Assembly (NCBI GenBank): GCA_046292385.1
Contig: JBKBRF010000005.1
Coordinates: 71,744-135,743 of the forward strand
Reading direction: 5' to 3'
Source of the DNA: Armatimonadota bacterium
GTDB lineage: Bacteria > Armatimonadota > SYMT01
Length of the DNA: 64,000 nt
Shown: in pieces, positions 39,172-58,283 of the stretch
Layout: each line of letters begins with the position of its first letter
Numbering within the stretch: position 1 is the stretch's first letter
Position numbers and translations under genes: made by a program
The notes under the pieces: model-generated
Seen by the model: only the letters and a program-made list of their open reading frames with translations
Database searches by the model: none
Told to the model about the DNA's origin: nothing

Positions 39172-39509
39172 TCCGAACTGGACGCGAAGGCGCGAAGGGA
39201 GGGAAGGACGCGAAAGGAAGCCGGAAGCATCTCATAGCCGCCGGGCGGTTGAAACCGCGGCAACCACGGCACGAAGTTTTATCCCCCGGATGGGGGACCC
39301 CCTGCGGGGACTCAGCTGAGCCGGGTTTGGAGCGTCCGGAGGACGCGTGGCCGTTTACCCCGGAGACTTTCGGGGCAGGCCTGCTAGCGAGGTATTCCAA
39401 TGCCTCGCGGCCCCCCGGATGCTCCGCCTGGTTACCCAGCAGGCCCAGCCTGGCCCTTCAGGTTCTCTTCGCGTTCTTCGCGTGAACTTCGCGCCTTCGC
39501 GTTCGTTCG
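39172..39509. repeat. Nested repeat mosaic (CGCGAAG arms enclosing two other repeated modules)
   Basis: CGCGAAGGCGCGAAG...CTTCGCGCCTTCGCG; inner modules recur near 60920 and 63784; arm recurs near 53151. Confidence 0.8.
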
Positions 39510-39523
39510 AAAGACACCCGGCG

Positions 39524-40675
39524 TCACGCGCGGCGGAGGGTGGCAACGGCGTGGGCGGACATGCCTTCTTCGCGGCCGACGAAGCCAAGGCGCTCGTTGG
39601 TGGTTGCCTTGATGCTGACGCGGTCCGGCTCGATCCGCAGCGCCTCCGCGATGTGGGCGCGCATCGTGGCGACGTGCGGACCGATCTTGGGGCGCTCGGC
39701 CAGGAGCATCGCGTCGACGTTCACCACGTCCCAGCCCTGCTCCCGCACCCGCTCCCCCACCACCCGCAGCAGCACCAGGCTGCTGGCGCCGCGGTACTGC
39801 TCGTCGGTGTTGGGAAAGTGGAGCCCGATGTCGCCGAGAGCGGCGGCGCCGAGGAGGGCGTCGGAGATGGCGTGCAGCAGCACGTCGGCATCGGAGTGGC
39901 CTTCCAGCCCCAGCCCTTCCGGGTGCTGCAGCTCCACTCCCCCCAGTACCAGCGGCCGACCCGGCTCCAGCCGGTGCACGTCGTACCCGAACCCGGTCCG
40001 CGTCTCCCCACCCAGCAGCGCTTCCGCCATCCGCAAGTCCTCGGCTACCGTAATCTTCAGGTTCCGCCGCTCGCCCGGGACCAGCGTTACCGGATGTCCC
40101 AACTGCTCCACGTAGCTCGCGTCGTCGGTCCCGGTAAAGTCGCTCTCGCGCGCGCTCCGATAGGCCGTCACCAGCAGGTCGTACCGGAAGACCTGCGGCG
40201 TCTGGACCCCGTAGAGCGCGCGGCGGTCGACCGTCTCCCGCGTCGTCTCACCGTCATCGGAGCGCTTCACGGTGTCCGCCACCGGAGTGGCCGGCAGGGC
40301 GGCCCCGGACTCCCGCGCGGCGGCGACGCAGGCGTCGATCAGCCGGGGCGTGGCGAGCGGGCGGGCGCCGTCGTGCACCGCCACCAGCTCCGTGCCTGCG
40401 GGAACGTGGGCCAGGGCGTTCTGGATGCTGTCGTACCGCTCCGCGCCGCCCTGGCAGACAGTGTGCGTCTTCGGGAATCCCGCCGCGATCTCCCGCACCC
40501 GCTCCAGGTCTTCCTCCGCGGTGACGACGATGATCGCGTCGATCCCGGCTGCGGTCTGGAGTGCCTGAAGGGTCCACGCGAGGACCGGGCGGCCGGCGAG
40601 GGCGGCGAAGACCTTGTTCTCCGGCGCTCCGAAGCGCCGGCCGCGTCCCGCCGCGGCTACGATAGCTGTCACCAT
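39524..40675 (-). CDS. ispDF: Bifunctional IspD/IspF
   Basis: AAAGRGRRFG, HDGARP, VQTPQ, NLKIT; GYDVH, GHSDADVLLHA, KATTNE. Confidence 0.95.
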   Translation of the reverse strand: MVTAIVAAAGRGRRFGAPENKVFAALAGRPVLAWTLQALQTAAGIDAIIVVTAEEDLERVREIAAGFPKTHTVCQGGAERYDSIQNALAHVPAGTELVAVHDGARPLATPRLIDACVAAARESGAALPATPVADTVKRSDDGETTRETVDRRALYGVQTPQVFRYDLLVTAYRSARESDFTGTDDASYVEQLGHPVTLVPGERRNLKITVAEDLRMAEALLGGETRTGFGYDVHRLEPGRPLVLGGVELQHPEGLGLEGHSDADVLLHAISDALLGAAALGDIGLHFPNTDEQYRGASSLVLLRVVGERVREQGWDVVNVDAMLLAERPKIGPHVATMRAHIAEALRIEPDRVSIKATTNERLGFVGREEGMSAHAVATLRRA

Positions 40676-40680
40676 TTCTT

Positions 40681-40795
40681 GAAGGCAAAAGTCAGAAGGC
40701 TAAAGGCAAAAGAAGAACGCTGGCACGAGCAGGGGCTCGGAGCATTTGCCTTCTGCCCCCGATCGGGGGGTGGACCTTAAGCCTTCTACCTTAGC
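40681..40795. repeat. AAGGC(A/T)A-heptamer inverted repeat
   Basis: AAGGCAA AAGTCAG AAGGCTA AAGGCAA...TTTGCCTTCTGCC...AGCCTTCTACCTT. Confidence 0.65.
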
Positions 40796-41955
40796 TAGTG
40801 GCTTCTGCCACCCCGGCGGGGGCGTTCGGGGCGGTAGTAGCTGCGGAGGTTGCGGTCCATCAGCTCCTGCTCCTCCTCCGCCACTTCCTTCAGGTTCCCG
40901 AAGATCATCTTTCCGGCCACGGTCTGCAGCACGCTGGTGACCACCGCCACGACGGTCTCGCCGACGCGGGAGCGGGCGTGCTCGACCACTACCATCGTGC
41001 CGTCGTCCAGGTAAGCGATGCCCTGGCCGGGCTCCTTGCCCTCTTTGATGACGTGGACGGTCAGCTCTTCCCCGGGTAGGACCACCGGCTTGAGAGAGTT
41101 GGCGAGCTGGTTCACGTTCAGGACGGAGACTCCCTGCAGCTCGGCCACCTTGTTCAGGTTGAAGTCGTTCGTCACGATGGAGCCGTTCATCTCCTTCGCC
41201 AGCCGCACCAGCTTGCTATCCACCGGCTCGTGCTCGCCGCCCTTGACCAGGTGGTCGTAGGTGCGGACGATCAGGCTGAACTCCTTCTGCATGTCGTTCA
41301 GGATATCGAGCCCCCGCCGGCCGCGGGCGCGCTTGAGGGAGTCGCTCGAGTCGGCGATCGTCTGGAGCTCGTCCAGCACGAAGCCGGGCACGTAGAGCGT
41401 GCCCTCGATGAAGCCGGTCCGGCAGATCTCTGAGATGCGGCCATCGATGATGATGTTCGTATCGAGGATCTTCACCTGTTCCAGTGCCGAGCGGTCTTCC
41501 GCCACGGCCCCGTACGGCGGCAGCAGCTTGCGGAGCTCATCCCGCATGCTCATGGCCCCCTGGGTGGCGAGGAAGACCATCGTAAACAGGAGCCCGATCC
41601 CCAGCGTGATCCGGAGCAGCGGCTCGGTGATCTGATTCAGCAGCGGCACCAGGAGGAAGGTCAGCAGCAGGCCGATGACGGCCCCGACGCAGAGGGCGAT
41701 CTTGTCATTGGCCGGCATCTCGCGCAGGTTCTCGGCGAGATGGGTGATGTAGTAGCTGACCTTGGAGTAGGCGAAGATGCCGGCGAGGATGCCGATTACG
41801 GTGAAACCGATCCGGCTCAGGTTGCGCAGGTTCGGAATGTCCCCGATGTACGCGTCGATGGTCGGGATGCTGGTATACCAGATCCCGACGCGGTACCCCA
41901 GGTAAGCGCCAACTACAGAGAGGACGAGCAGCAGAACGGCGCGGACGATAGCCAC
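40795..41955 (-). CDS. PIN/TRAM domain membrane protein (YacL-like)
   Basis: ILDTNIIIDGRI, RGRRGLDIL, TNDFNLNKVA, YLDDGTMVVVE; upstream of ispDF as in Firmicutes. Confidence 0.92.
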   Translation of the reverse strand: MAIVRAVLLLVLSVVGAYLGYRVGIWYTSIPTIDAYIGDIPNLRNLSRIGFTVIGILAGIFAYSKVSYYITHLAENLREMPANDKIALCVGAVIGLLLTFLLVPLLNQITEPLLRITLGIGLLFTMVFLATQGAMSMRDELRKLLPPYGAVAEDRSALEQVKILDTNIIIDGRISEICRTGFIEGTLYVPGFVLDELQTIADSSDSLKRARGRRGLDILNDMQKEFSLIVRTYDHLVKGGEHEPVDSKLVRLAKEMNGSIVTNDFNLNKVAELQGVSVLNVNQLANSLKPVVLPGEELTVHVIKEGKEPGQGIAYLDDGTMVVVEHARSRVGETVVAVVTSVLQTVAGKMIFGNLKEVAEEEQELMDRNLRSYYRPERPRRGGRSH

Positions 41956-42232
41956 AACGATTTTCTCCTGGCCGCATCACGTCCGGCGGTGGCGCGTGGC
42001 GGACCCGGAAGTTGATTGATAGGGCGGCATCTCAGCGCCCGGGCGAGGGGCTCCGGCTTGCTGTCCGGAGGCCGTCACGTCACAGTCTGAGAAGCCGCAG
42101 CTCGATCGGCGGGTTGTCTGAATAACCGACAAGCTGCCGGTAGAGCACACTCAGGACCGCCATACGGTCTTTGTTCCGGCAGAGCCTCCCGCTGTCCTCT
42201 TTTCGCGTCGAAGGGCGCCGAAACCCGCCCCG

Positions 42233-43150
42233 CTAGCGCGCAGCCCGGTGCCGCAGCACGCCCCGGCGCGGGGCCGAGACCGGCGCGGACTGACGTGCTG
42301 ATTCTACCGCCATTTGCATCTCCGCGTGGTAAAGCCGCGGAAGCGCTCCGTATTCCAGGTAGAGCGACTGCTGCTCGATGAGGAAGTAGCGACGGCCGAG
42401 GCGCATCGCGGCCTCCGCCGTGGTGCCGGTGCCTCCGAACGGGTCGAGCACCAGGTCTCCGGGCCGGGTGCAGGCGGAGACGATCCGCTGTAGCAGCGGC
42501 AGCGGCTTCTCCGTGCTGTGCAGCTTCTTGCCGTCGCCGCCCTTCTTACGGGCGTCGCCGTTGCAGATCGGGAAGCGCCAGACGCTGCGCATCTGCTTGC
42601 CGCCGTTCGCCTGCTTCAGGTCGTGGTAGTTAAAGGTGTAGCCGCGCGCGTACCGCTCCCCCTTGGCCGCCCAGATCATCTCCTCGTGCGCGTTGCAGAA
42701 GCGCACGCCCCGGAAGTGCGGCGTGGGGTTCGTCTTCTCCCAGATCACGCTGTTCAGCATCCAGTAGCCGAGGTCTTGCATCAGCGTGCCGATCCGGAAG
42801 ATGTTGTGGTAGCTGCCGATCACCCAGAGCGTGCCGGTGTCTTTCAGCACCCGCTGGCACTGGGTCAGCCACTCCCGGCAGAAGCGATCGTACTCCGCCC
42901 AGTCCGCAAACTGGTCCCACGCGTCGTCCACCGCGTCTACCACCGTGTTGTTGGGCCGGCGCAGCTCGTTCTGGAGCTGCAGGAAATAGGGCGGGTCCGC
43001 GAAGATGAGGTCCACGCTCCGGTCCGGCAGGTCGCTCAACACCCGGCAGCAGTCGCCCTGCACCACCCAGCTGCGGCTCAGGTCGTACACCTGCTCCGGC
43101 ACGTGGCGGATGAACCGGGGGGTGAGTTGCGAGAGAGCGGATCGATCCAT
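42233..43150 (-). CDS. Orphan N6-adenine/N4-cytosine DNA methyltransferase, CcrM/M.HinfI-like (beta class)
   Basis: IFADPPY, VDAVDDAWDQF, WVIGSYHNIFRIG, HSTEKP, LDPFGGTGTT. Confidence 0.88.
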   Translation of the reverse strand: MDRSALSQLTPRFIRHVPEQVYDLSRSWVVQGDCCRVLSDLPDRSVDLIFADPPYFLQLQNELRRPNNTVVDAVDDAWDQFADWAEYDRFCREWLTQCQRVLKDTGTLWVIGSYHNIFRIGTLMQDLGYWMLNSVIWEKTNPTPHFRGVRFCNAHEEMIWAAKGERYARGYTFNYHDLKQANGGKQMRSVWRFPICNGDARKKGGDGKKLHSTEKPLPLLQRIVSACTRPGDLVLDPFGGTGTTAEAAMRLGRRYFLIEQQSLYLEYGALPRLYHAEMQMAVESARQSAPVSAPRRGVLRHRAAR

Positions 43151-43398
43151 GTGGGGGAACCTCCGGGGCCGACTTTTGTATTCCTGTGCGGGAATCTAGA
43201 TAAACTCGCGGATTCCAACGACTATGTCGGCTGCGCCCTCGCGGCGGCACAGGGCTGCTCGCTTGCTGGCCCCGGATGCGGGGCGGAGAGGCAGACATTC
43301 GGCGGGGCTGCCGCCCCTCCACAGGCCCCCTTGTGATACCGTTTACGGATTGATCCAACCAACTTTAAGCAAGCGAGCTGTGAAGGAGTGGCCTCTCG

Positions 43399-44457
43399 AT
43401 GGAGAGCGAGTCTTTTGAGTTTCTTCGGGCCCTGGTAGAGACCGGCGGGCCCTCCGGCTACGAGCAGCCGGTGCAGGCGGTCTACCGGCGGCAGGCAGAA
43501 GCTTATGGGGCGAGCGTGGAGATCGACGTGCTGGGGAACGCGATCGCCACGATCAACGCCGGCGGCGCTCCCCGCGTGATGCTCGCCGGACACGCGGACG
43601 AAATCGGGTTCCTGGTCCGTCACATCGACGACGACGGCTACATCTACTTCGGGCCGGTCGGCGGCTGGGATGCCGAGATCGTGGTGGGCCAGCGGGTGAC
43701 GGTCCACACGGAGAACGGCCCGGTCTGCGGCGTGATCGGCAAGCGGGCGATCCACCTGATGGACGAGGAAGACCGCCGGAAGAAGAGCGAGCTCTACAAG
43801 CTCTGGATCGATCTCGGCGTCACCTGCAGGGCCGACGCGGAGGCGCTGGTCACCATCGGCGATCCGGTGACGATGCGCCAGCCGCTGGAGCGCCTCCACG
43901 GAGACATGGTCGCGGCCAAGAGCTTCGACAACCGGATGGCGGTCTGGGTGTGCGCGGAGACGCTGCGCCTGCTGCGCGGTGCGGAGCTGAAGGCGGCGGT
44001 CTACAGCGTCTCCACCGTCCAGGAGGAGATCGGCCTCCGCGGCGCGCGGACTTCTTCGTTCGGCATCAATCCGCAGGTCGGCATTGCGCTCGACGTCTGC
44101 CACTCCACCGACTATCCCGAGGCCGACAAGCGGAAAGTGGGCGACATTCGCCTCGGCCGCGGCCCGGTGATCTCGCGCGGCGCGAACATCAACCCGCGCG
44201 TCTTCGAGCTGCTGGTCCGCACCGCCCGCGAAGACGGCATCCCCTACCAGGTCGAGGCCGCCCCCGCCGGCACCGGCACGGATGCCAACGCCATGCAGCT
44301 GAACCAGGCCGGCATGGCGACCGGCCTCGTCTCGGTCCCGCTCCGGTACATGCACACCCCGTGCGAGATGCTCTCGCTCGCCGACCTGGAAAACGCCGCC
44401 CGCCTCTGCGCCGGCTTCATCCGCCGCATCAGCGGCGACGAGAGCTGGATCCCGTAG
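43399..44457 (+). CDS. M42 family metallo-aminopeptidase
   Basis: GPSGYE, GHADEIG, FDNR, VQEEIG, GTDA, RYMHTP. Confidence 0.93.
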   Translation: MESESFEFLRALVETGGPSGYEQPVQAVYRRQAEAYGASVEIDVLGNAIATINAGGAPRVMLAGHADEIGFLVRHIDDDGYIYFGPVGGWDAEIVVGQRVTVHTENGPVCGVIGKRAIHLMDEEDRRKKSELYKLWIDLGVTCRADAEALVTIGDPVTMRQPLERLHGDMVAAKSFDNRMAVWVCAETLRLLRGAELKAAVYSVSTVQEEIGLRGARTSSFGINPQVGIALDVCHSTDYPEADKRKVGDIRLGRGPVISRGANINPRVFELLVRTAREDGIPYQVEAAPAGTGTDANAMQLNQAGMATGLVSVPLRYMHTPCEMLSLADLENAARLCAGFIRRISGDESWIP

Positions 44458-44470
44458 CGCTGCGCGGCTT

Positions 44471-44638
44471 GACGGAGAGATAGAGGGACCTTCCGGGACG
44501 GAGAGACAGAGCGACGGAGAGACGGGGTGAATCCGAACCCCTGAATGCGCAAAGCGGACTCTGCCCGTCGCAGACAGCTCTCCCCGTCCCTCTGTCTCTC
44601 CGTCTCTCCGTCTCTCTGTCCCCGAAGGTCTCTCCGTC
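44471..44638. repeat. GAC(G/A)GAG(A/G)-octamer inverted repeat
   Basis: GACGGAGA GACAGAGC GACGGAGA GACGGGG...CCCCGTC CCTCTGTC TCTCCGTC TCTCCGTC TCTCTGTC. Confidence 0.85.
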
Positions 44639-44710
44639 TTCGTCGTCCGTAGCGCCTCGGCTTCGGAAAAGAGGGAGAGGCTGCTGCGGATCGCCGGGGC
44701 AGGGTCCGAC

Positions 44711-45460
44711 ATGGAGAGTGTGATCGACGGCATACCCTTCAAGATGGGCGAGACCCCGATGGTCGAGCTGGTGGACGTCACGCTCCGCCACCGGGAGAAG
44801 AACCTCGCGCTGCAGAACGTGTGCTGCCGGGTGTCCCGCGGCGAGCTCGTCTTTGTCGTCGGCCACACCGGCAGCGGGAAGTCTTCCCTCCTCCGCCTGC
44901 TCAACCGCGAGCTGCGGCCCACCTCCGGGCAGGTCTGGGTCGACGGGCAGGACGTCACCCGGCTCCGCCCGCGCGACATCCCCGCGCTGCGGCGCAAGAT
45001 CGGCGTCGTCTTCCAGGATTTCCGGCTGCTGCCGGACCGCACCATCGAGGAGAACGTCGCCTTCGCGCTGCGGGTGATCGGCGTGCACGGAAAGGCGCTC
45101 CGCGGCCGCACTTTCGACGCGCTCCAGTGCGTGGGGCTGATGTCGAAAGGCAAGATGTATCCGCACCAGGTCTCCGGCGGGGAGCAGCAGCGGGCCGCGC
45201 TGGCCCGCGCCATCGTCAACTCCCCGCAGCTCCTCATCGCCGACGAGCCGACCGGAAACCTCGACCCTGAGACCTCGCACGGGATCATGCAGCTCCTGGA
45301 GCAGATCAACGCCACCGGCACCACCGTGCTGGTAGCGACCCACGACCAGCAGATCGTCGACTCGATGCAGAAGCGCGTCCTCGCCCTGCACGAAGGGCGT
45401 CTCGTCCGCGACTCGACCGGAGGCTACACCCCCACCCCACCCCCGCTCATCCTTCGTTAG
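44711..45460 (+). CDS. ftsE: Cell division ATP-binding protein FtsE
   Basis: GHTGSGKS, LRRKIGVVFQDFRLL, SGGEQQR, ADEPTGNLD; precedes ftsX; true start may be 44760. Confidence 0.93.
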   Translation: MESVIDGIPFKMGETPMVELVDVTLRHREKNLALQNVCCRVSRGELVFVVGHTGSGKSSLLRLLNRELRPTSGQVWVDGQDVTRLRPRDIPALRRKIGVVFQDFRLLPDRTIEENVAFALRVIGVHGKALRGRTFDALQCVGLMSKGKMYPHQVSGGEQQRAALARAIVNSPQLLIADEPTGNLDPETSHGIMQLLEQINATGTTVLVATHDQQIVDSMQKRVLALHEGRLVRDSTGGYTPTPPPLILR

Positions 45461-45481
45461 CGGGTTCGGCTGGGGACCCGT

Positions 45482-45933
45482 TTCACCGCAGAGAGCGCAG
45501 AGGACGCAGAGATGAGGGACCGGCTCAATCAACTCAGCGAGTCGATCATCGGAGCGGCGATCCGAGTCCATCAGGAGCTCGGCCCCGGTCTGTTGGAGAG
45601 CACCTACGAGGCCTGCCTCGCCTTCGAGCTCCGCGAGCTGGGGTTGGAGGTGGAAACGCAGAAGGCACTCCCGGTTGTCTACCGGGGCGTACGGCTGGAC
45701 TGCGGGTACCGGCTCGATCTGCTGGTGGAAGAGCGGGTGGTGGTGGAGATAAAGGCGGTCGATGCGCTGGCCGCGATCCACGAGGCTCAGGTCCTATCCT
45801 ATCTGCGCCACTCGGGATGTTGTCTCGGATTGTTGATCAACTTCAACGTAGAGCGGCTACACACCGGTGTTCGCCGGCTGGTCCATCAGTTCCCCTCATA
45901 ATCCTCTCTGCGCCCTTTGCGGCCTCTGCGGTT
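45482..45933. mobile_element. Candidate inverted-repeat-bounded GxxExxY cassette inserted between ftsE and ftsX
   Basis: Left arm ACCGCAGAGAGCGCAGAGGACGCAGAGA abuts the ATG; right arm TCTCTGCGCCCTTTGCGGCCTCTGCGGT begins 3 nt after the stop; 24/28 complementary. Confidence 0.6.
45512..45901 (+). CDS. GxxExxY protein (PD-(D/E)xK nuclease fold)
   Basis: LGPGLLESTYE, RLDLLVEERVVVEIK, HEAQVLSYL, GLLINFN; 129 aa. Confidence 0.95.
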   Translation: MRDRLNQLSESIIGAAIRVHQELGPGLLESTYEACLAFELRELGLEVETQKALPVVYRGVRLDCGYRLDLLVEERVVVEIKAVDALAAIHEAQVLSYLRHSGCCLGLLINFNVERLHTGVRRLVHQFPS

Positions 45934-45947
45934 AGACACCCAAACCC

Positions 45948-46829
45948 ATGTTCAGCAGTCTCTGGTTTCTCATCGGTGAGTGTGCTCGGAACCTCCGCCG
46001 GCAGGGGTTGATGACGCTCGCTTCGATCAGCACCACCGCCATCGCGCTGACGATCATGGGGGTGGCGGGGCTGGTCGGCTGGCAGGTGTTCGCGGTGCTG
46101 GACGGCGCGCCGCGGCGGATGGAGATCCACGCCTTCTTCCGGACCGGTCTGCCGCGCACGGAGGCGCTGGAAGTGGTGCGGCAGGTGGAGCAGCTCCCCG
46201 GGGTGATCCGGGTGCACCTGGTGACGCGGGAGCAGGCCTGGACCGAGTTCCGCAAGAGTCACCTCCACCGGGACGTGCTGGAAGGCTTCAAGGAGAACCC
46301 CCTGCCGGACAAGCTCCACGTGGTGGCCCAGAGCCCGGAGCTGACGCTGCAGGTGGCGGACCGCATCCGCCAGATGCCGGGGATCGACGCGGTAAACGAG
46401 GGTAAGCAGGTGCTGAGCCAGCTCCTGCGGCTGATGTATATCGCGCGCACCGTGGGGCTGATCCTGGGCGGCGTGATGCTGATCGGGACGGCGGTCCTGG
46501 TGAGCAACGCGATCCGGATGACGCTCTACGCCCGGCGGCGGGACATCCGGGTGATGCAGCTCGTCGGCGCGACCAACGGCTTCATCCGCCTGCCGTTCCT
46601 GATGGAGGGGCTGGTGGAGGGCACGCTGGGCGGCGCCCTGGCCTGCGGCGCGCTGCTGGCGGCATTCCAGTACTACAGCTCCACCCTGCTGCCGCGGGTC
46701 CCGCTGCTCAACCAGTTCGACATGGCCCTGGAGCTGCCGCTCCTCTGCGGGGCGCTCCTGGCGGCCGGCGGCTGCATCGGCCTGCTGGGCAGCCTCGTCT
46801 CTCTTCGTCGCTTCCTGCAGCCCGCCTGA
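45948..46829 (+). CDS. ftsX: Cell division permease FtsX
   Basis: ENPLP, SNAIRMTLYARRRDIRVMQLVGATNGFIRLPFLMEG. Confidence 0.93.
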   Translation: MFSSLWFLIGECARNLRRQGLMTLASISTTAIALTIMGVAGLVGWQVFAVLDGAPRRMEIHAFFRTGLPRTEALEVVRQVEQLPGVIRVHLVTREQAWTEFRKSHLHRDVLEGFKENPLPDKLHVVAQSPELTLQVADRIRQMPGIDAVNEGKQVLSQLLRLMYIARTVGLILGGVMLIGTAVLVSNAIRMTLYARRRDIRVMQLVGATNGFIRLPFLMEGLVEGTLGGALACGALLAAFQYYSSTLLPRVPLLNQFDMALELPLLCGALLAAGGCIGLLGSLVSLRRFLQPA

Positions 46830-46913
46830 CCCGGCCGGTCTGTTCGTTCGCACCGGCCGCCGCTCCGCCCGTCCCGTCGGGTAAAGCGCGGCCGGTTCCG
46901 GAGTCCTTCTGCG

Positions 46914-48101
46914 ATGCCGTCTTCCCCACGCCCCCCTGCCAGCGCGAACCCGGCCCTGAAGTGGGTGGCCGCCGGCGCCGTGCTCCTCACCCTCGGCACG
47001 GTCCTCACCTCGGAGGCGGCGAAGCCGAGTAAGAAGGCGCGGATCCAGGCGCTCCGGCAGCGGCTTAAGTCGCTCTCGCAAAAGAAGGCGGACCAGCGCC
47101 AGGAGCTGCGGGAGACGAAGCGCACCCAGGGACGCTTGGCGGACCAGATCCAGGCCAGCTACGAAGATCTGGAGCGCGCCACCGAGGCGCTGCAGGCGTC
47201 CGAGCGGCGCCTGGAAGCGGCGGAAGCCGAGGTAGCCGAGACGACCGAGCGACTCCGGGTGGCCGAGGAGCGCCTCCGGGAGCAGCAGCGTCTCTTTGGG
47301 AAGCGGATCGCCTACTACTATAAGGAAGGGTCCACTTCCTACCTCGACGTGCTGCTGCAGGCGCGAGACATCGGCGACTTCCTGGACCGGCAGTACTACA
47401 TGGACCGGATCATGGACCAGGACGCCGCCCTGGTGTCCGGGCTCCGGCGCACCCAGGAAGAAGTGCGGCAGCAGCGGCTCCGGCTGCTCGAGCGCAAGGC
47501 GAAGCTGGCGCAGGCGCATGAGGAGAACGCGCAGCGGGTGCAGCTCGTGAGCGACCAGACGCTCAAGCTGGAGCGGTTCATGAAGTCGATCCAGAAAGAA
47601 CGCGCCCTGCAGGAACAGCGGCTGATCGAGATGGAAGAGGATTCGCGGGGCGTGGAGCGCTCGCTCGCGGCGGAGCTGAGCCGCAGATCCGCAAATCCGG
47701 GGAAGTACCGGAACCTTCCGAAGTGGTCCGGTCGCCTATACATGCCGGCAAGGGGCCCGATCACCTCTCGATTCGGTTACCGCACGCACCCGGTACTCAG
47801 GTACCGCAGGCTGCACTCGGGGGTCGATATCGGGGCCGGGACCGGCTCTCCAGTCTACGCCGCGGCGGACGGCGAGGTCTTCTTCGCGTCTTGGCGTGGC
47901 GGATATGGCAAGTGTATAATCCTGCTACATGGCGGGGGAGTATCCACTCTGTATGGACATCTCTCCCGCATCGATGTTCGATCCGGGCAGGACGTGCGAA
48001 GAGGGCAGCGGATTGGCGCTGTGGGAAGCACCGGTCTTAGCACCGGCCCGCACCTCCATTTCGAGGTGCGCCGGAATGGGGTGCCGGTAAACCCGCTTTG
48101 A
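46914..48101 (+). CDS. Coiled-coil M23 peptidase (EnvC-like)
   Basis: Long coiled coil; ITSRFGYR, HSGVDI, YGHLS, TGPHLHFEVR. Confidence 0.92.
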   Translation: MPSSPRPPASANPALKWVAAGAVLLTLGTVLTSEAAKPSKKARIQALRQRLKSLSQKKADQRQELRETKRTQGRLADQIQASYEDLERATEALQASERRLEAAEAEVAETTERLRVAEERLREQQRLFGKRIAYYYKEGSTSYLDVLLQARDIGDFLDRQYYMDRIMDQDAALVSGLRRTQEEVRQQRLRLLERKAKLAQAHEENAQRVQLVSDQTLKLERFMKSIQKERALQEQRLIEMEEDSRGVERSLAAELSRRSANPGKYRNLPKWSGRLYMPARGPITSRFGYRTHPVLRYRRLHSGVDIGAGTGSPVYAAADGEVFFASWRGGYGKCIILLHGGGVSTLYGHLSRIDVRSGQDVRRGQRIGAVGSTGLSTGPHLHFEVRRNGVPVNPL

Positions 48102-48127
48102 TCTGTTCTGCGGAGATCAGAAGTATT

Positions 48128-49594
48128 ATGCGACAAAGAGAACCAATCTGGTGGGTAGGCGCGACCGTCGCGGTACTGGCCGGTTTTTCCTTCTTCTCCG
48201 GCCTCGGTATCCGCGGCCTTTACGCTCAGGTCGCCTCCGGCCGGGAGGACGTCTCCAATCTCCCCAAGCTGGCGTCCACCGCGCCCCGGGTTCCCGATCC
48301 GGATCTCCGCCCGGCCGAGCTCTACTGGGACGTGCTCCATAAGCTGCAGCTCTATTACGTGGAGCCGCTTCCCCCCAAGTCGAAGCTCGCGTACGGCGCG
48401 ATCGACACCATGCTCAACCAGCTCAAGGACCCCAACACGCGTCTCTTGAGCCCGGAAGAAATGTCTGCCCTGAAGGGCGTGGGCGAGGGCCGCTTCACCG
48501 GTCTCGGCGCCGTGCTGACGGTCCGCCGCTACAACAACCGCCCGGACGCCGCGATGCCGGTGGATGAAGAGGGCGGCAACGCGGACGAGGCGAGCCGCGG
48601 CGTCCGCACGATCACGGTGGTGAGCGTGCCGCCGGGCACTCCGGCCGATAAGGCCGGGCTGCAGCCGGGCGACCGCATCACGGAGATCGACGGCAAGTGG
48701 GTGGCGCCGATCCACCTCTCCTACCGCGTGCTGACCCAGCTCACCGATCCCGCGGGCCCGCAGGACGGCCAGCCGGATAGCCCGCACGAGGATCCCGAGC
48801 GGCCCGAGCCGGATCCGAAGCGCGAGCAGCTCCGCAAAGAAGCCGAAGAGGAAGCCAAGCGCTGGAAGACGGCGACCGACCTGGCCAGCGGAATGACGCT
48901 CCTCGCCAGCACCGCCGGCGAGCACGAGCTGACGGTCGAGCGCGGCACGCCGGCCAAGACCGTGAAGGTCCGCGTTAACCTCGCCGACACGCAGGTTCCG
49001 CTGGTCAGCGCCCGCAAGTTGAACGGCGCCAACGGCTACCTGCAGGTGCTGGCGTTCGACGCCGCCACGGTGAAGAAGGCGGGCGAAGAGCTGGCCGCGC
49101 TGAAGAAGCAGGGCGTGAAGCACCTGGTGCTCGACCTGCGGCAGAACGCCGGCGGCAGCCTGGAAGCCACGCGCGACCTCGCCGGAATGCTGATGGGCGA
49201 CGGCAAGTTTGCCACCGTGAAGGAATATGTCACCCAGGCGGACGGCAGCCGCAAGCTGACGGACCGGCCGCTGGTGATCAAGGGCGTCACGCCGGTGCTC
49301 AAGCCGGCATCTCTTAGCGTGCTGGTGAACGGCGGCACGGCCGGCACGGCCGAGCTGCTCGCCGCCTCGCTGCGGGACGGGCTGAGCGCCAAGCTGGTCG
49401 GATCCGAGACGTTCGGCGCCGGCACCATTCAGGAAGTGCATCCCCTCCCCAACGGCGCGGGCGTCAGCATTACCCGCGCCAAGGTGTTGACGGCCCGGGG
49501 CATCGACTTCGATGCGAAGGGTCTCAAGGCTGACGTTGCTCCCCAGGGCGACCCGGTCGAAGCCGCGGTCAAGGCCCTGTCGGCCGGCGCCTAG
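48128..49594 (+). CDS. S41 (CtpA-like) PDZ protease homologue lacking the catalytic Ser/Lys
   Basis: DPNTR, PDZ GTPADKAGLQPGD, LDLRQNAGG; TAGTAE and TFGAG in place of SASASE and TFGKG. Confidence 0.8.
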   Translation: MRQREPIWWVGATVAVLAGFSFFSGLGIRGLYAQVASGREDVSNLPKLASTAPRVPDPDLRPAELYWDVLHKLQLYYVEPLPPKSKLAYGAIDTMLNQLKDPNTRLLSPEEMSALKGVGEGRFTGLGAVLTVRRYNNRPDAAMPVDEEGGNADEASRGVRTITVVSVPPGTPADKAGLQPGDRITEIDGKWVAPIHLSYRVLTQLTDPAGPQDGQPDSPHEDPERPEPDPKREQLRKEAEEEAKRWKTATDLASGMTLLASTAGEHELTVERGTPAKTVKVRVNLADTQVPLVSARKLNGANGYLQVLAFDAATVKKAGEELAALKKQGVKHLVLDLRQNAGGSLEATRDLAGMLMGDGKFATVKEYVTQADGSRKLTDRPLVIKGVTPVLKPASLSVLVNGGTAGTAELLAASLRDGLSAKLVGSETFGAGTIQEVHPLPNGAGVSITRAKVLTARGIDFDAKGLKADVAPQGDPVEAAVKALSAGA

Positions 49595-49644
49595 CCCCGG
49601 CAGGAACCTCTAAAGCGGCATCCAAGGCTTCCGAAGGACACGCA

Positions 49645-50928
49645 ATGAAACGCAAGGCAATTCTTACCGCCTTTATGGCGACCGTGATCGCGGGGTCGTT
49701 CCTGGCCGGCATCTTCGAACCGGAGCTGCGCGCCCAGAGCGGCCTGCCCGCGAGCATCTTCAGCCTGAAGCCGGGCAGCGAGCAGAAGGAGCTCGACCCG
49801 GTTAATACCTATAGCAAGGTCCTCCAGCTCGTGAACGAGCGCTTCTACGGCGAGACGCCCGGCGCGAAGGAGATGACCTACTACGCCATCCGCGGGATGC
49901 TGAACTCGCTGGATGACCCGTACACGCGCTTCCTCGACCCGGAAGAGTACCGGGAGCTCCGGGAAGACAACCTGGGCGAGTTCGAAGGGATCGGCGCGAC
50001 GCTGGGCGGCACGCCGACGAAGGAAGGCTACGTCCGCGTGGTGCGCCCCATCCCCGGCGGCCCGGCGGACAAGGCCGGCCTGAAGAAGGGCGACCTGATC
50101 ACGAAGGTCGACGGCAAGTCCGTCCAGGGCATGAGCGTCAACCAGGCGGTCAAGATCATCCGCGGCAAGTCGCGCTCCATCGTGCGCCTCACCGTGAAGC
50201 GCTCCGGCGTGGACAAGCCGCTCGACATCTCGATCGAGCGCGCCCCGGTGGAATACCCGATCGTGGAGTACGTGATGAAGGAAGGGAACATCGGCTACGT
50301 CTCCCTCTCCCAGTTCAACGAGCTCTCCGATCAGAAGATGACCCAGGCGATCCAGGATCTGGAAGCGAAGGGCATGAAGGGCCTGATCCTCGACCTCCGC
50401 GGCAACCCCGGCGGGCTTCTGGATGCGGCGATCGACATCTCCAGCCGTTTCGTGGAGCCGGGCAAGGGCGTGGTCTACATCGTCGAGTCGGGCGAGCGCC
50501 CCGACCTGCGCCGGACCAACGCGCGGAAGCACCTGAGCCGCGACTGGCCGCTGGTGGTGCTGGTGAACCGCACCAGCGCTTCCGCCTCGGAGATCGTGGC
50601 GGGCGCCGTGAAGGACAATCAGGCCGGCACCGTGATGGGCACCACCACCTTCGGGAAGGGCCTGGTCCAGACCGTGATGCCGCTCGAGGGCAACAGCGCG
50701 GCGATGATCACCACGCACAAGTACCTCACGCCGTCCGGTAAGGACATCAACCGCGGACGCGACCAGCGGGGCGGCGTGCACCCCGACATCGAGGTCGACG
50801 TGACCGAGGAAGACTGGCTGAAGGGCAAGGATCCGCAGCTCACCCGGGCGCTGGAGTTCCTGCACCAGAAGGTCGGTTACAAGGCCCCGGCCAAGCCGCA
50901 GGCGGGAGCCGCCAGCGCGAAGCCGTAG
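49645..50928 (+). CDS. ctpA: Carboxyl-terminal processing protease (S41)
   Basis: DPYTRF, GGPADKAGL, LDLRGNPGG, SASASEI, TFGKG, PDIEV. Confidence 0.93.
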   Translation: MKRKAILTAFMATVIAGSFLAGIFEPELRAQSGLPASIFSLKPGSEQKELDPVNTYSKVLQLVNERFYGETPGAKEMTYYAIRGMLNSLDDPYTRFLDPEEYRELREDNLGEFEGIGATLGGTPTKEGYVRVVRPIPGGPADKAGLKKGDLITKVDGKSVQGMSVNQAVKIIRGKSRSIVRLTVKRSGVDKPLDISIERAPVEYPIVEYVMKEGNIGYVSLSQFNELSDQKMTQAIQDLEAKGMKGLILDLRGNPGGLLDAAIDISSRFVEPGKGVVYIVESGERPDLRRTNARKHLSRDWPLVVLVNRTSASASEIVAGAVKDNQAGTVMGTTTFGKGLVQTVMPLEGNSAAMITTHKYLTPSGKDINRGRDQRGGVHPDIEVDVTEEDWLKGKDPQLTRALEFLHQKVGYKAPAKPQAGAASAKP

Positions 50929-50968
50929 CGGACTGCGGTAACGGCTTCGGCCGGCCCGTCCGATAATC

Positions 50969-51003
50969 AGAGAGGGACCGCCCACCGGTGGTCCCTCTCT
51001 TTT
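50969..51003 (+). terminator. Rho-independent terminator after ctpA
   Basis: AGAGAGGGACC...GGTCCCTCTCT followed by TTT. Confidence 0.7.
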
Positions 51004-51022
51004 CGTCTGTCGCTGCCGCAGT

Positions 51023-52057
51023 ATGCCCCCCAAGACGTCCCGTCCACGGAAGCCGACCGCCTCTCCCAGCCGCTCCGGCTCTCGTCCCGCCTCCCGTCCT
51101 CCCGGGAGCTCCGGGGGCGGCATCGGCGGCACCCTGGCCCTCGGCCTCGCCGTCGCCGTTCTCGGGAGCACCGCCGGCGTGCTCGCCCAGCGCTGGGTCT
51201 CCCCCAGCCCGGCGGTGAAGAAGGCGGGCGGCCCCGTAGAGCGCTCCCGCACTGCCTCTCGCGAGACGCGCCGGGCCGCGGCCGAGCGGCCGGCGGTGGG
51301 GCGCCGCACCGAACCCAATCCGAAGCCGGCGGAGAAGCCGGCCGAGCCGGAAGCCAAAACACCGGAGGCTCAGCAACCGGAGAGCCCGGCGGAAGCTCCC
51401 GCCCGTAAGGAAGAGGCTTCCCTCCTCCCCGCCGCGGCGCCGACCGAGTACCCCGCGATGGAGATCGAGCGCGGCGCGGGAGCGCGGCCGGAGGTGGCAC
51501 TGACCTTCGACGCCGGGGCCGACTGGAAGCCGGCGAAGCAGATCCTGGATACCCTGGCGGCCGAAGGGGTGAAGACGACTTTCTTCCTCACGGGAGAGTG
51601 GGTGCGCCAGAACCCGAAGACTTCGCAGCGAATTGCCGACGAAGGTCATGAGATCGGAAACCACTCCTGGGACCATCCGGCGTTCACCAAGCTGACCGAG
51701 GAGCAGATCCGGGACCAGCTTGCCCGCACGGAGACGCAGATCCAGCAGGCAACCGGCCGCACTAGCCGGCCCTACTTCCGCCCGCCGCTCGGCGCGCGGG
51801 ACCGGCGGGTGCTGCGGGAAGTGGGCAAGTCCGGCTACCTCTCGATCTATTGGACCCTCGACTCGCGCGACTCGGTCGACCGTGGTATCACCGCGGCACA
51901 GATCCGCGACCGGGTGCTGGGCAAGATCGGACCCGGCAGCATCGTGCTGCTCCACTGCGGCAGCCAGGCCTCCGCGGACGCCCTGCCGGAGATCCTGCGG
52001 GGACTAAGAGAGCGCGGCCTGAAGCCGGTGACGGTGGGGCGGCTGCTGGCCGATTGA
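51023..52057 (+). CDS. Polysaccharide deacetylase (NodB/CE4), membrane anchored
   Basis: ALTFDAG, TFFLTG, HEIGNHSWDH, YFRPPLG, IVLLH. Confidence 0.92.
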   Translation: MPPKTSRPRKPTASPSRSGSRPASRPPGSSGGGIGGTLALGLAVAVLGSTAGVLAQRWVSPSPAVKKAGGPVERSRTASRETRRAAAERPAVGRRTEPNPKPAEKPAEPEAKTPEAQQPESPAEAPARKEEASLLPAAAPTEYPAMEIERGAGARPEVALTFDAGADWKPAKQILDTLAAEGVKTTFFLTGEWVRQNPKTSQRIADEGHEIGNHSWDHPAFTKLTEEQIRDQLARTETQIQQATGRTSRPYFRPPLGARDRRVLREVGKSGYLSIYWTLDSRDSVDRGITAAQIRDRVLGKIGPGSIVLLHCGSQASADALPEILRGLRERGLKPVTVGRLLAD

Positions 52058-52065
52058 ACTAAGTG

Positions 52066-52112
52066 GGAGAGCCTTCGGGGACGGAGAGACAGAGCGACCG
52101 AGGGACGGGGAG
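52066..52112. repeat. Octamer repeat, single arm
   Basis: CCTTCGGGGACGGAGAGACAGAGCGACCGAGGGACGGGGAGA resembles the arm at 44580-44638 (reverse complement). Confidence 0.75.
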
Positions 52113-52131
52113 AACTGCCGGAGACCAGAAG

Positions 52132-53142
52132 ATGTGGGAGCCAACTGCGGATAATGAAGTGCAGTCTCTGCGCCGGCGCCTCTGGATCGAGCGCGGGGTG
52201 TTTGCCACGGTGATCGTGGCGGGCGCGCTGGCCGTCTGGAGACCCTCGCTGCCGGCGCTGCCCGGGCTGCAGCCGCAGAAGTGGGCGGTCTACGTGGGCG
52301 ACAAGCCGGTCGCTGCCCTCGCTACCCGGGAGGCGGCGCAGGCGGCGCTGGAGCAGGCGAAGCGGTCTGAGGACCCGACCGGCGCCGCCAGCTTCGCGGA
52401 GCCGGTCAAGGTGGCGCCGCTCGGGAAAGCCGACCTGCCGGTGCTCGCCGGCGATGCCGCCGCCGATAAGCTGGCCGAGGCGGTGAAGCTGACCGCCGAG
52501 CGCGGCGTCGTCTACATCGACGGGATGGCCGTCGTCGCGCTTCCGACCGAGCGGGAAGCGCACGAGGTGCTGGAAGCGATCAAGCAGGGCTTCGCCGGCA
52601 AGCTCCAGGGGGTAGACGCCGCCCCGACCTTCAAGGAGCAGGTGGAGGTCCGCACCGAGCCCGCCACGGACGACCTCTGGGCCGACAAAGAGACCGCGCT
52701 CGGGCTCCTGCGCGGCGAAGGTGCGGAAGAGGAAGGCTCCTACAAGGTGGTGAGCGGCGACAGCGGCTGGATTGTCGCCAGGAAGCACGACATGTCGCTG
52801 GACCAGCTCCAGAAGCGCAATCCCGGCGTGCGGCTCGACCGCCTGAGCGTGGGCCAGACCCTGCGCGTCGGAGAGACGGCGGAGCCGATCCTCACCGTGG
52901 TGACCGAAGGCCGCGTCCAGCGCACCGTCTCCTCGTCCTTCTCCATCCGGATCCAGCGCTCCCCGAAGATGTACGTCGGCAAGCGCATGCTGGTGCAGCC
53001 GGGCCGACCCGGCCGAGACCGCGTGACCTACAAGGTCCGCTGCGAGAACGGCCGCGTGGTTCACGAGGAGCCGCTCAAGCGGGAGACGCTGGCGCCCCCG
53101 TCGCACCAGGTCGTCGTCCTCGGCGCCAAGCCCCGGCGCTGA
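52132..53142 (+). CDS. LysM + G5 domain membrane-anchored protein
   Basis: LysM YKVVSGDSGWIVARKH...NPG...LSVGQTL; G5-like QPGRPG...ENG...VVVLG. Confidence 0.8.
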   Translation: MWEPTADNEVQSLRRRLWIERGVFATVIVAGALAVWRPSLPALPGLQPQKWAVYVGDKPVAALATREAAQAALEQAKRSEDPTGAASFAEPVKVAPLGKADLPVLAGDAAADKLAEAVKLTAERGVVYIDGMAVVALPTEREAHEVLEAIKQGFAGKLQGVDAAPTFKEQVEVRTEPATDDLWADKETALGLLRGEGAEEEGSYKVVSGDSGWIVARKHDMSLDQLQKRNPGVRLDRLSVGQTLRVGETAEPILTVVTEGRVQRTVSSSFSIRIQRSPKMYVGKRMLVQPGRPGRDRVTYKVRCENGRVVHEEPLKRETLAPPSHQVVVLGAKPRR

Positions 53143-53150
53143 CTAGCGCG

Positions 53151-53210
53151 CCGAACGATCGCGAAGTCGCGAAGCTCGGGAAGGACGCGAAGGGAACCTG
53201 AAGGGACCAG
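53151..53210. repeat. CGCGAAG repeat, single arm
   Basis: CGAACGATCGCGAAGTCGCGAAG...GACGCGAAGGGAACCTGAAGGG; homologous to the reverse complement of 39453-39509. Confidence 0.75.
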
Positions 53211-53433
53211 CGAACGCGCTTCGGGTCCCTGGGTTCCAGCCCCGAAGGCTTTTCGGGGCTGCGCTCCTGGTAGCGCCGAGTTTACTCGCGCGCGGGCTGG
53301 CGATCGACGCTGTTTCAGGGCATCCAGCCCGGCCGCCGCGGCCACCTGGTCGCAAGCGCGTACGCGGAAAGCCCCGCTGGTGAGGCGGGGCTGCGATCCG
53401 ATGCCGTCCACCGCAGGGGCGGTGGCGTGAGCG

Positions 53434-53796
53434 TTAGTTCAGCACCTTCTCCCGGACCAGGTAGGCCGGAGACGGGCTCGTCTCTCGCGGGAGATCGTCA
53501 AGATCGCTGATGCCGCCTTCCGCGGCGGCCCGCGCGGCGCCGCTCAGCACCGTGGCCAGGCCGACGGCCAGCAGCTCCGCCACCACTTCGTCCTGGTCCA
53601 GGCCCCGCGACTCCTCCAGGATGGCGCTGGCGACCTGGAACTGCACCGCACCCTCGTCCTGCAGCCGGAAACGCGCGTCGATGTCCAGCGCGAGGCTCTG
53701 TCCGTGCCGCTCTCGTTCCCGGGCGGACTCCATGATGTCTTCTACCCGGCGCATGATCCGCTGCGCCGCCGCCTCCGCGTACTCCGATCTGAACAT
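53434..53796 (-). CDS. Hypothetical protein
   Basis: GGAGGAGG RBS, 120 aa, high GC3. Confidence 0.6.
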   Translation of the reverse strand: MFRSEYAEAAAQRIMRRVEDIMESARERERHGQSLALDIDARFRLQDEGAVQFQVASAILEESRGLDQDEVVAELLAVGLATVLSGAARAAAEGGISDLDDLPRETSPSPAYLVREKVLN

Positions 53797-53920
53797 CTCG
53801 CGCCTCCTCCGGCTCGCCTCCCCCTACCGGCCCGCATTCCCGGAGCGCACGCCGGGTACGGTGCTTATCCCCAGATGCGGGAAAGGCCAACCCCGTCCCG
53901 ATCCGGCGGGGGGCGCCCGA

Positions 53921-55303
53921 TCAGTAGAGGCGGAGGAGCGGCTCTCCGCTCGAGAGGGGGAAGGGGCGGGAGAGGCGGTCGGTGATCTCTAGGTGACGGT
54001 CGATGCCGAGCGCGTGGTAGATGGTGGCGGTCAGGTCGGCGGGGCTCACCGGATCGCTGGCAGGGTAGGCGGCGGTCTCGTCGGAGCTGCCGAGCACCTG
54101 GCCCCCCTGGACGCCCGCGCCGGCGAGGAGGGCGCAGCCGCAGTGGCCCCAGTGGTCGCGCCCGCCGGCCGGGTTGATCTTCGGCGTGCGGCCGAACTCC
54201 CCGACCCACACCACGAGCGTCTCGTCCAGCAGGCCGCGATCGTGCAGGTCCCGGAAGAGCTGCGCGTGCGGCTGGTCGGTCTGGGGCATTAGCCGGTCCT
54301 TCAACTCTTTGAAGTTGTTGGCGTGGGTGTCCCAGGTGGTGTCGATGTCCGGCCGCTCCCGGTGCCAGTAGACGCAGATGAACGGCACCCCGGCCTCCAC
54401 CAGGCGGCGCGCCACCAGCACCGCCTGGCCGTGCCGGTGCATGCCGTACGCCTCCCTCACCTTCGGCGGCTCCGCGGTCACGTCGAAGGCGCGCCGCGTG
54501 GCTGGAGAGGTGAGCATGTCGAGCGCGCGCTCGTAGAAGACGTCCTGGCCCTGTCCCGGCAGGCTTTCCGCAAGGTGCTTCGCGCCCGCCGCCTCGAGCA
54601 GGGCGCGGCGGCGGAGCAGGCGGCGAGGATCGACGTCGCCCGGCAGCGCGATGTCCGGCACGCGGAAGCCGGGGCTGCTGAAGTCGCCGTCGATGCGGAA
54701 CGGGTCGTATCTCGGCCCCATGAAGCCGCCGGTCTGCCCGGGGAAGTCGGGCGCGCCGCCGGTGATGTACGCCTTTTCCGGCAGCGCGACGAACGGCGGG
54801 ACCGGATTCTCCGGACGGCGGAACCGGCTCACCACGGCGCCGACGTGGGGGAAGTCGTCCGGGCCGGGGTCGCGCCGCTCGCCCGGATTCGGGTGCCGGT
54901 GACCGGTCAGCACTTCGTAGGCGCTGGTGCTGTGGTCGATGCCCGGGTGACTGAGCGACCGGACGATCGCGTAGCGGTCTGCCACCTGCGCGAGCCGCGG
55001 ATAATGCTCGGAGATCCGGATGCCCGAGACGTTCGTCTCGATCGGCTTGAACTCGCCGCGCACCTCCGCCGGGGCGTCGGGCTTCAGGTCGAAGGTGTCC
55101 TGGTGCGGGGGACCGCCGGTCATGAAGAGCATGATCACGGAGCGGGCGCGGCCGAACCCATTCGACTTCCCCGCCGCCGCGGAAGCAGCGCGCAGGCGCA
55201 GCAATTCCGGCAGCGAGAGCCCCAGGGCTCCGATCCCGCCCCTCTGCAGCAGCCGCCGGCGGGAATACCCGCTCCGTCCGTTTCCACCATCCATCCGGTT
55301 CAT
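53921..55303 (-). CDS. DUF1501 family protein (Tat-like leader)
   Basis: SRRRLL, GGPPHQDTFDLKP, ARRLVEAGV, WDTH, GEFGRTP, GRDHW. Confidence 0.93.
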   Translation of the reverse strand: MNRMDGGNGRSGYSRRRLLQRGGIGALGLSLPELLRLRAASAAAGKSNGFGRARSVIMLFMTGGPPHQDTFDLKPDAPAEVRGEFKPIETNVSGIRISEHYPRLAQVADRYAIVRSLSHPGIDHSTSAYEVLTGHRHPNPGERRDPGPDDFPHVGAVVSRFRRPENPVPPFVALPEKAYITGGAPDFPGQTGGFMGPRYDPFRIDGDFSSPGFRVPDIALPGDVDPRRLLRRRALLEAAGAKHLAESLPGQGQDVFYERALDMLTSPATRRAFDVTAEPPKVREAYGMHRHGQAVLVARRLVEAGVPFICVYWHRERPDIDTTWDTHANNFKELKDRLMPQTDQPHAQLFRDLHDRGLLDETLVVWVGEFGRTPKINPAGGRDHWGHCGCALLAGAGVQGGQVLGSSDETAAYPASDPVSPADLTATIYHALGIDRHLEITDRLSRPFPLSSGEPLLRLY

Positions 55304-55450
55304 CTTTCAGGTGAGAGTACGGGGAGAGAGAACGGTTTCACGACGGTCCGCGGCGGGGTGGTTCCTGCTGGCGGGCTTCCTTGCCCGGCGGCAGCTTGAT
55401 CGGTATACTCTGTTTGACCCGCTCTAATCTTCCGTCTCTCTTTAGACGCC

Positions 55451-57949: not shown

Positions 57950-57960
57950 CGTTCCGGACC

Positions 57961-58267
57961 GTGATTCACCACAGAGAACACAGAGGGCACAGAGAGGAAC
58001 CGGAACGGGAATTCACCGCAGAGAGCGCAAAGGGCGCAGAGAGGCGAACCAGAAGGAAGAAACTCCGGGGCCGCTGTACGGAGTTCGTGAAGCGGATCAG
58101 GCCCCTCCCGCTTCTCCTCTGGTTCCCCTCTGCGTCCCCTCTGCGCTCTCCGCGTCCTCTGCGGTGAGTCCGGTTCGGATTGGGGCCGCAGTACGGCTGA
58201 CGTGAAGCGAATCAGTCCCGTCCCCCTGGTTCCTCTCTGTGTCCTCTGTGCGCTCTGTGGTGAGTCA
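57961..58267. repeat. CACAGAG/CGCAGAG composite element, gene-less copy C
   Basis: Outer CACCACAGAG...CTCTGTGGTG and inner CACCGCAGAG...CTCTGCGGTG inverted repeats. Confidence 0.9.
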
Positions 58268-58283
58268 GGTCCGGAGTAGCCCG

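Follow-up and report, generated by a model that had tools for sequence, protein, structure and literature searches.

Why should a small gene of the GxxExxY family, enclosed by periodic inverted repeats, lie between ftsE and ftsX, and do gene and repeats form one unit that moves? The locus belongs to a 64,000-nt stretch (the window) of the 7.04-Mb genome of an Armatimonadota bacterium (G000; other G numbers denote comparison genomes, and L numbers GxxExxY loci). An earlier note on this DNA had placed a GxxExxY reading frame and its two arms between ftsE and ftsX, and this arrangement is confirmed by coordinates and by profile matches:

44711-45460, + strand: ftsE (PF00005), the upstream host gene, with a short Pro-rich C-terminal tail
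45461-45480, + strand: local palindrome CGGGT...ACCCG, containing GGTTCGG
45482-45511, + strand: left arm, ACC plus three CGCAGAG units with linkers AG/GA; its last base adjoins the ATG
45512-45901, + strand: GxxExxY gene (PF13366/TIGR04256), 129 aa, stop TAA
45905-45933, - strand: right arm, inverted, three-unit, with linkers GC/GG; it begins 3 nt past the TAA
45948-46829, + strand: ftsX (PF18075/PF02687), the downstream host gene

The whole cassette (left arm, gene and right arm) spans ~450 bp and begins 21 nt past the ftsE stop, and the ftsX start lies 14 nt 3' of the right arm, no Shine-Dalgarno (SD) sequence being visible in that interval. An SD-like AGAGGA is found within the left arm, immediately 5' of the GxxExxY ATG. 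The complementarity of the arms at 24/28 positions, as described previously, can be read directly off the sequence (45485-45512 pairs with 45905-45932, with CGCAGAG units at a 9-nt period), and over a wider span 25/31 positions are complementary. Among the gene-less copies described below, the left-arm type with AG/GA linkers is the commonest left arm (25/35), and the GC/GG-linker right-arm type accounts for 4/35 right arms and 0/35 left arms. The GC3 of the GxxExxY gene is 0.79 versus 0.93/0.94 for ftsE/ftsX. The motif GGTTCGG borders many gene-less elements in G000, and the palindrome at 45461-45480 may have been left by an older element. A contig from another study (run X2) spans 45548-46398 with 0 differences, so the junction of gene, right arm and ftsX is no assembly artefact; no cassette-skipping joint was found among the 15 listed of 86 obtained when contigs of 4 runs were compared with 39600-59500. 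Nearby, a solitary DNA methyltransferase-like reading frame with a DPPY motif occupies 42233-43150 on the minus strand, and a gene-less hairpin of another periodic family, built of GGAGAGAC units, lies just 5' of ftsE at 44470-44640; the latter family has 78 arm matches across G000, and the search gave no cognate gene.

The occupancy of the site was compared among relatives. Thirty ftsX loci were taken from 41 genomes, of which one is G000 and one lacks ftsE on its contig, leaving 28. The two genes are contiguous in 26/28 (estimated gap -29 to +21 nt), which shows the empty site and bears out the view that ftsE and ftsX are normally adjacent; in 1/28, an 88-nt gap holds another palindrome. In G006, the gap of 524 nt holds a GxxExxY gene with 64% identity, enclosed by similar arms, and in its congener G001 the site is empty. 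The FtsE+FtsX tree, (G005 empty,(G000 filled,(G006 filled, G001 empty))), together with this occupancy implies two gains, or else a single gain followed by clean loss in G001. The insertion point lies 10 residues past a conserved Tyr of the FtsE tail in G000 and 4 residues past it in G006, and the tail measures 11 residues in G001. Monophyly of the G000 and G006 proteins from this junction gave p-AU 0.62, an uninformative test in which a single origin is not rejected; as a single old insertion with loss in G001 is compatible with this value, recent movement at ftsE-ftsX is not established. Family-level ftsE-ftsX junctions were too diverged for exact breakpoints, and a search of metagenome contigs with FtsX found no relative. 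At the same junction, a distant relative (G020, L015) carries a different palindrome, of GTCATGCTGAGC type.

Other junctions are likewise occupied. In Mucilaginibacter, a cassette is present at 6/30 loci upstream of one gene, which from its motifs we take to be topoisomerase subunit A, and a seventh was located by coordinates among 81 genomes; four cassettes lie immediately 5' of the start codon and two farther upstream (start positions are approximate), the junctions being too diverged for exact breakpoints. Cassettes in three genomes (L004 in G000, L050 in G004 and L047 in G036) lie immediately 5' of the same type of gene, argG-like as we judge from a motif, and this recurrence reflects either an old insertion or a hot spot. 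Across GxxExxY loci, the median distance from the upstream stop to the arm is 12.5 nt, and from the arm to the next start 19 nt. The cassettes sit at tight gene junctions, and come and go at one site among relatives.

The 129-aa protein matches PF13366 (148 bits, cut-off 22) and TIGR04256 (151 bits, cut-off 35), its only profile matches. In an alignment of 98 proteins (17/115 were left out because the extracted slice contained a stop or was short), the motif residues G26, E29 and Y32 are present in 98/98, the catalytic residues D69, E79 and K81 in 98/98, 97/98 and 97/98, respectively, and E29, D69, E79, K81, Q93 and Y97 are conserved in 94-98. The pattern D-x9-E-x-K plus QxxxY presumably merits a RecB-family label. 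The structure model (pLDDT 94.9) presents a minimal PD-(D/E)XK fold, and the protein is a putative nuclease; in agreement with the motif assigned earlier, D69/E79/K81 are intact and the top fold matches are of PD-(D/E)XK type. The top Foldseek row is a Cas4/RecB-type nuclease (SSO0001, 4ic1; E 1e-3; Z 8.1 with an rmsd of 3.9 for 102 residues), and 3ijm and 3s1s score equally well. The best matches at Z about 8 (3ijm, BpuSI and Cas4 SSO0001) may indicate a common fold only, none being significant and none standing out; tRNA-splicing endonucleases occur among the weak matches of the model (Z about 5). A PDB sequence search with the protein gave no match, a conserved cysteine set is absent from the alignment, PADLOC had no match for the protein (and only four weak single-member matches among 26), and no DUF559 gene was found in G000.

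The highest identities cross phyla, with 72% to an archaeal protein and 68% to one from Chloroflexota. The G000 and G006 proteins from the ftsE-ftsX junction each score higher against proteins of other phyla than against one another (72% to an archaeal protein and 69% to an Anaerolineae one). Matching database records include only 7 from plasmids and 0 from phages; among viral contigs, one search gave 0 GxxExxY loci and a later search 4. Three viral contigs of 57-102 kb (L146-L148) carry divergent GxxExxY genes (38-41%) within AT-rich inverted arms that lack CRCNRAG. PDDEXK_3 is listed as a family of unknown function with multiple transfers (PMC3424549).

Arms were scored by local alignment (score >=30) of the upstream flank against the reverse-complemented downstream flank, two duplicates and one stop-containing match having been removed before counting. 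By this measure arms flank 30/31 loci within the phylum, 58/80 across phyla (the best 80 of 600 matches to the profile near the 129-aa protein, and hence biased to its subfamily) and 3/4 viral loci, as against 1/212 shifted controls. When loci with two units on both sides are also admitted, arms are present at 101/115 loci versus 1/212 controls, and 14/115 fail. Arms are a trait of the GxxExxY family, as had been anticipated for other members of it. CRCNRAG units at an 8-11-nt period are common to 72/115 loci, the arm sequences varying between loci; each arm is a tandem trimer, with ends TT(A/C)AC-CRC. Within a locus, the degenerate positions of the left arm co-vary with those of the right (0.84 versus 0.51), as does linker length (0.74 versus 0.31). 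A second layout differs from that of a gene inside one split hairpin: at L307, L310, L311, L312 and L314 (G261), and also at L045, L048 and L064, the gene is flanked by two complete hairpins or by arms that face outward, and at L311 a DNA methyltransferase motif apparently follows.

The presence of the gene is patchy (19/41 genomes), and repeat abundance follows it, as the earlier note had suggested: at least 15 arm-pattern matches occur in 14/19 genomes with the gene versus 0/22 without it, although related genomes are not independent and kinship causes p-values to be overstated. Five of the 19 gene-bearing genomes have few arms. Three findings named beforehand as telling against the proposal were looked for and not encountered, namely a gene conserved at this site across the lineage without arms, other GxxExxY genes without such flanks, and a repeat equally frequent in genomes lacking the gene.

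The three-unit arm pattern identifies 207 arms in 76 clusters of G000 as against 0, 1 and 2 in three shuffles; 52/76 clusters have the left arm or arms followed by the right, and the remaining 24 have a single orientation. Gene-less relatives had been noticed elsewhere in the window, and three are located there:

14087-14360, no strand: nested hairpin without a gene, arm family as in the ftsE-ftsX cassette, by arm pattern
21703-21904, no strand: nested hairpin without a gene, same arm family, by arm pattern
57968-58261, no strand: two-layer hairpin without a gene, same arm family, lying 19 nt past a stop between convergent genes

The gene-less elements are not single arms; they consist of two or three nested layers, at the centre of which is a conserved, oriented spacer. 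Of the suggestion that they are non-autonomous derivatives, the common arm family stands; descent from a gene-bearing copy calls for caution, as no GxxExxY gene remnant was found in the gene-less spacers. When copies are oriented by the spacer, left and right arms are of distinct types, the cassette having the same polarity, and fewer arm pairs are near-identical than expected at random (2 versus 6.4 of 51, p 0.03). Most elements lie within about 20 nt of a stop codon and, as judged with a crude gene caller on 52 of them, 26/52 are between co-directional, 22/52 between convergent and 4/52 between divergent genes, against a background of 70/15/15%. A GTAG-foot reading was rejected, TAG stops beside the elements being only mildly enriched (29/55 versus 38%, p 0.03). 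In 35 aligned copies, pairwise distances in one half correlate with those in the other at -0.04, versus 0.59 for interleaved positions, and linkage falls from r2 0.25 to 0.05 with distance (0/1000 permutations as extreme), although local indels and small spacer hairpins may inflate its short-range values. Because the halves are uncorrelated and linkage decays, the copies are recombinant mosaics and not clonal transposed copies. No flanking direct repeats above shuffle, as expected of target duplication, were found in four families (p 0.09-0.6), the ends of which may be old.

G000 holds four GxxExxY paralogs, and the arms of each differ in sequence. The four arm families comprise 121, 86, 48 and 30 sites, with 36, 20, 14 and 9 inward pairs and 0, 1, 0 and 0 outward pairs, respectively, and the reversed-arm control gave 7 matches in total for all four; there is one paralog per dispersed gene-less hairpin family in G000. 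One member of another family lies in the window:

39174-39509, no strand: gene-less hairpin of the arm family of the L003 paralog (on contig C16), by arm-family match

Gene-less arms of the L002 and L003 families occur in the window at 3217-3233, 39174-39509 and 53152-53174. The arms of L002 follow a different grammar, their motif is present in 2/201 genomes of the phylum, and no relative of L002 above 54% was found in phylum genomes. A metagenome search by the L002 arm motif alone gave at least 123 loci, 52 of which extend for 500 nt or more on the inner side and 69 on the outer side. Among the loci listed, 4 carry a GxxExxY gene, in each case on the inner side, and 4/4 are closest to L002 among 98 proteins; three are full-length (64-69% to L002 versus at most 51% to others), and the fourth is a fragment. 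One of these cassettes is flanked by gene-less hairpins within a tandem array. Every enzyme subtype has an arm type and gene-less copies of its own, and gene and cognate arms travel as one unit; that the enzyme reads the arms would be a step beyond such co-travel.

Longer relatives of the protein are in agreement with insertion at gene ends. These number 108, with 38 tandem double domains and 69 bearing long extensions, many of the latter fused to about 20 unrelated housekeeping domains. An arm-like peptide is present at the fusion joint in 31/69 versus 2/198 control windows, the peptide patterns having been derived from the arms themselves and so not being blind. As judged from sequence, the fusions are probably the footprint of insertion at gene ends followed by read-through; if the cassette model is true, the odd database fusions of GxxExxY to housekeeping enzymes would be products of read-through at insertion sites.

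Taken together, we favour, at even odds (a probability of about 0.5), a selfish unit of REP/RAYT-like type whose enzyme is a hydrolytic PD-(D/E)XK nuclease and which spreads by cutting and gene conversion; in it, the ~450-bp cassette looks like the gene-bearing master copy of the gene-less hairpin family. The GxxExxY protein would recognise the CRCNRAG units arrayed in threes within an arm, in DNA that is most likely hairpin, cruciform or single-stranded, and would nick or cut there. To our knowledge, the PD-(D/E)XK fold forms no covalent intermediate, and the break would therefore be repaired by host recombination copying another family member. Copies arising in this way would be nested mosaics and would lack target duplications, and the gene would move when the donor is a gene-bearing copy. 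New insertions would survive only where the sequence can be dispensed with, as at stop-codon junctions or in the low-complexity tail of FtsE. In the ftsE-ftsX transcript, pairing of the arms would bury the SD and AUG of the nuclease and keep its expression low, and folding out of the cassette may bring the incidental benefit of weaker polarity on ftsX. Down-regulation of the same kind has been proposed for RAYT (PMC3733652). Against this explanation, co-inheritance of gene and arms is equally expected of passive cargo, and of the original idea of a compact unit analogous to RAYT/REPIN with a different enzyme, the analogy of one gene per repeat family holds up, and GxxExxY is a candidate for the mover.

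Passive cargo is the most direct challenge: hairpins spread by other machinery (RAYT, host recombination or replication template switching) may capture small genes, GxxExxY among them. All 8/8 four-helix-bundle (TIGR02436) genes of G000, for which we know of no nuclease role, sit in inverted periodic arms of several grammars (6-8-nt), at the following positions:

C25:42125, C49:40807, C47:9270 and C43:45921: four-helix-bundle genes of G000
C1:245981, C7:141181, C34:61865 and C10:107689: four-helix-bundle genes of G000, continued

Because these genes share the layout, a position between arms is not sufficient to identify GxxExxY as the mobiliser. GIY-YIG-like and RAYT-like reading frames in inverted repeats of G000 (the former at C43:28720-29455 in TGTCATCCTGAAC-type palindromes, the latter, RAYT/IS200-like, at C51:25843-26414 in another palindrome; both families judged from translations) also suit such capture, as do the gene-less spacers free of gene remnants, and CGTC repeats without a dedicated transposase are described in PMC3733652. 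What makes passive capture unlikely is that different cargoes go with different arm grammars (0/8 four-helix-bundle genes have CRCNRA unit pairs on both sides), that abundant repeats require the gene (0/22 genomes without it), that in unrelated metagenomes the enzyme subtype can be predicted from an arm motif, and that the catalytic residues are near-invariant.

Alternatively, the selected form could be RNA, as in an rRNA intervening sequence moved into mRNA, with the stem looped or cut out by RNase III or by the cargo, and with ftsE-ftsX coupling kept or transcript stability tuned as the effect. The arm stem is indeed predicted at p about 1 (-50.6 kcal/mol) and covers the SD-like AGAGGA and the AUG of the GxxExxY gene; the short stop-to-arm and arm-to-start distances, the gene-less copies that abut stops and are enriched between convergent genes (22/52 versus 15%), and the tRNA-splicing endonucleases among the weak fold matches would fit as well. 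Yet the duplex is equally stable on the opposite strand (-51.7 versus -50.6), the gene strand has no G.U excess (G.U- versus A.C-type mismatches, 124 versus 129 and 87 versus 77), spacer orientation is independent of transcription (13 versus 9), the heptamer sequence is conserved beyond the needs of pairing, and Rfam had no match in the window. The mRNA is so not singled out as the selected form, because of the missing G.U bias, the equal strand stability and the indifference of the spacer to transcription; the proposal that the arms loop the cargo out of the mRNA is not supported as a selected function, although the stem is predicted, and we rate an RNA-level element as quite unlikely. Least probable, and in our view improbable, is a nuclease that has been domesticated or that serves the host in defence, addiction or repair, its arms acting as operators or decoys and its movement being rare and incidental. 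A single copy for each arm family, as in RAYT systems, a fold near Cas4, the scarcity of plasmid and phage records (7 and 0) and the filling of the same junctions across genera (ftsE-ftsX in G000/G006, and one that we take from motifs to be argF-argG-like in G000/G004) speak for it, and it is opposed by the absence of a PADLOC match for the 129-aa protein, by neighbours and fusion partners that are unrelated housekeeping genes, and by patchy presence (19/41) with nearest relatives in other phyla.

If the cut-and-convert unit is real, a repeat system would rely on a purely hydrolytic nuclease, implying that cutting and host recombination are enough for spread. GxxExxY is a widespread family for which the arms give a concrete candidate substrate, and the four enzyme/arm pairs of G000 are built-in specificity controls. 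How intergenic palindromic repeats spread, especially families without a tyrosine transposase, is a question stated in PMC8266576 and PMC3733652. More tentatively, and with the balance tipping against it, GxxExxY cassettes might form a distinct class of mobile DNA in bacteria and archaea, in which subtypes of a minimal 129-aa hydrolytic nuclease would read different periodic arm codes, spread themselves and tens of gene-less hairpins by cutting and conversion, and land at junctions without target duplication, as one branch of a wider gene-in-a-periodic-hairpin class that includes the four-helix-bundle cargo. Many natural nuclease/recognition-code pairs could then be drawn from them.

A full-text search, with subscription journals outside its scope, gave no description of a GxxExxY gene-plus-arm system. 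Small repeats of cyanobacteria were reportedly treated by Elhai et al. 2008, and overlap with the GxxExxY arm families is possible. The relevant passages of a heptamer-repeat paper on Beggiatoaceae (PMC4679880) make no mention of GxxExxY. Among the systems compared, Cas4/RecB-type nucleases share the PD-(D/E)XK fold match, but the conserved cysteine set and, here, a CRISPR context are lacking. The cassette has terminal inverted repeats like an IS or MITE, whereas the unit holds no strand-transfer transposase and the copies are mosaics instead of near-identical clones. Free-standing homing endonucleases are hydrolytic nucleases that spread by break-induced gene conversion without target duplication, as in the model proposed here, and mosaicism fits conversion; unlike them, GxxExxY involves no intron or intein, its presumed targets are dispersed repeats and not one allelic site, and gene-less copies dominate.

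The intervening sequences of 23S rRNA with an S23/four-helix-bundle reading frame (PMC4990558) are similar selfish units of ~430-450 nt with the frame in a stem, and that cargo class sits in similar arms in G000; the present cassette differs in its location at an mRNA gene junction, its nuclease-fold cargo, its dispersed gene-less copies and the lack of any sign of RNA-strand selection. TIRtrons (TIRYT; PMC3733652) also enclose an enzyme gene in long inverted repeats that recur as dispersed families, but with a tyrosine transposase and TIRs carrying GGGGWSAS in place of periodic CRCNRAG arms. From REPtron/REPIN-RAYT systems (PMC8266576, PMC3733652), the cassettes differ in having a PD-(D/E)XK protein instead of an HUH/Y1 transposase (profile and fold differ), in lacking a GTAG/CGTC foot and a self-palindromic REP, the arms being non-palindromic tandem trimers whose hairpin, unlike that of REP, forms only between arms and encloses the gene, and in having their closest relatives in other phyla, whereas tnpA-REP is without evidence of mobility. 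Shared with those systems are a single-copy enzyme gene with cognate flanking repeats, many intergenic gene-less inverted doublets, several repeat-specific systems per genome with abundance tied to gene presence, heterodimeric doublets, ends near stop codons and mosaic arrays like BIMEs.
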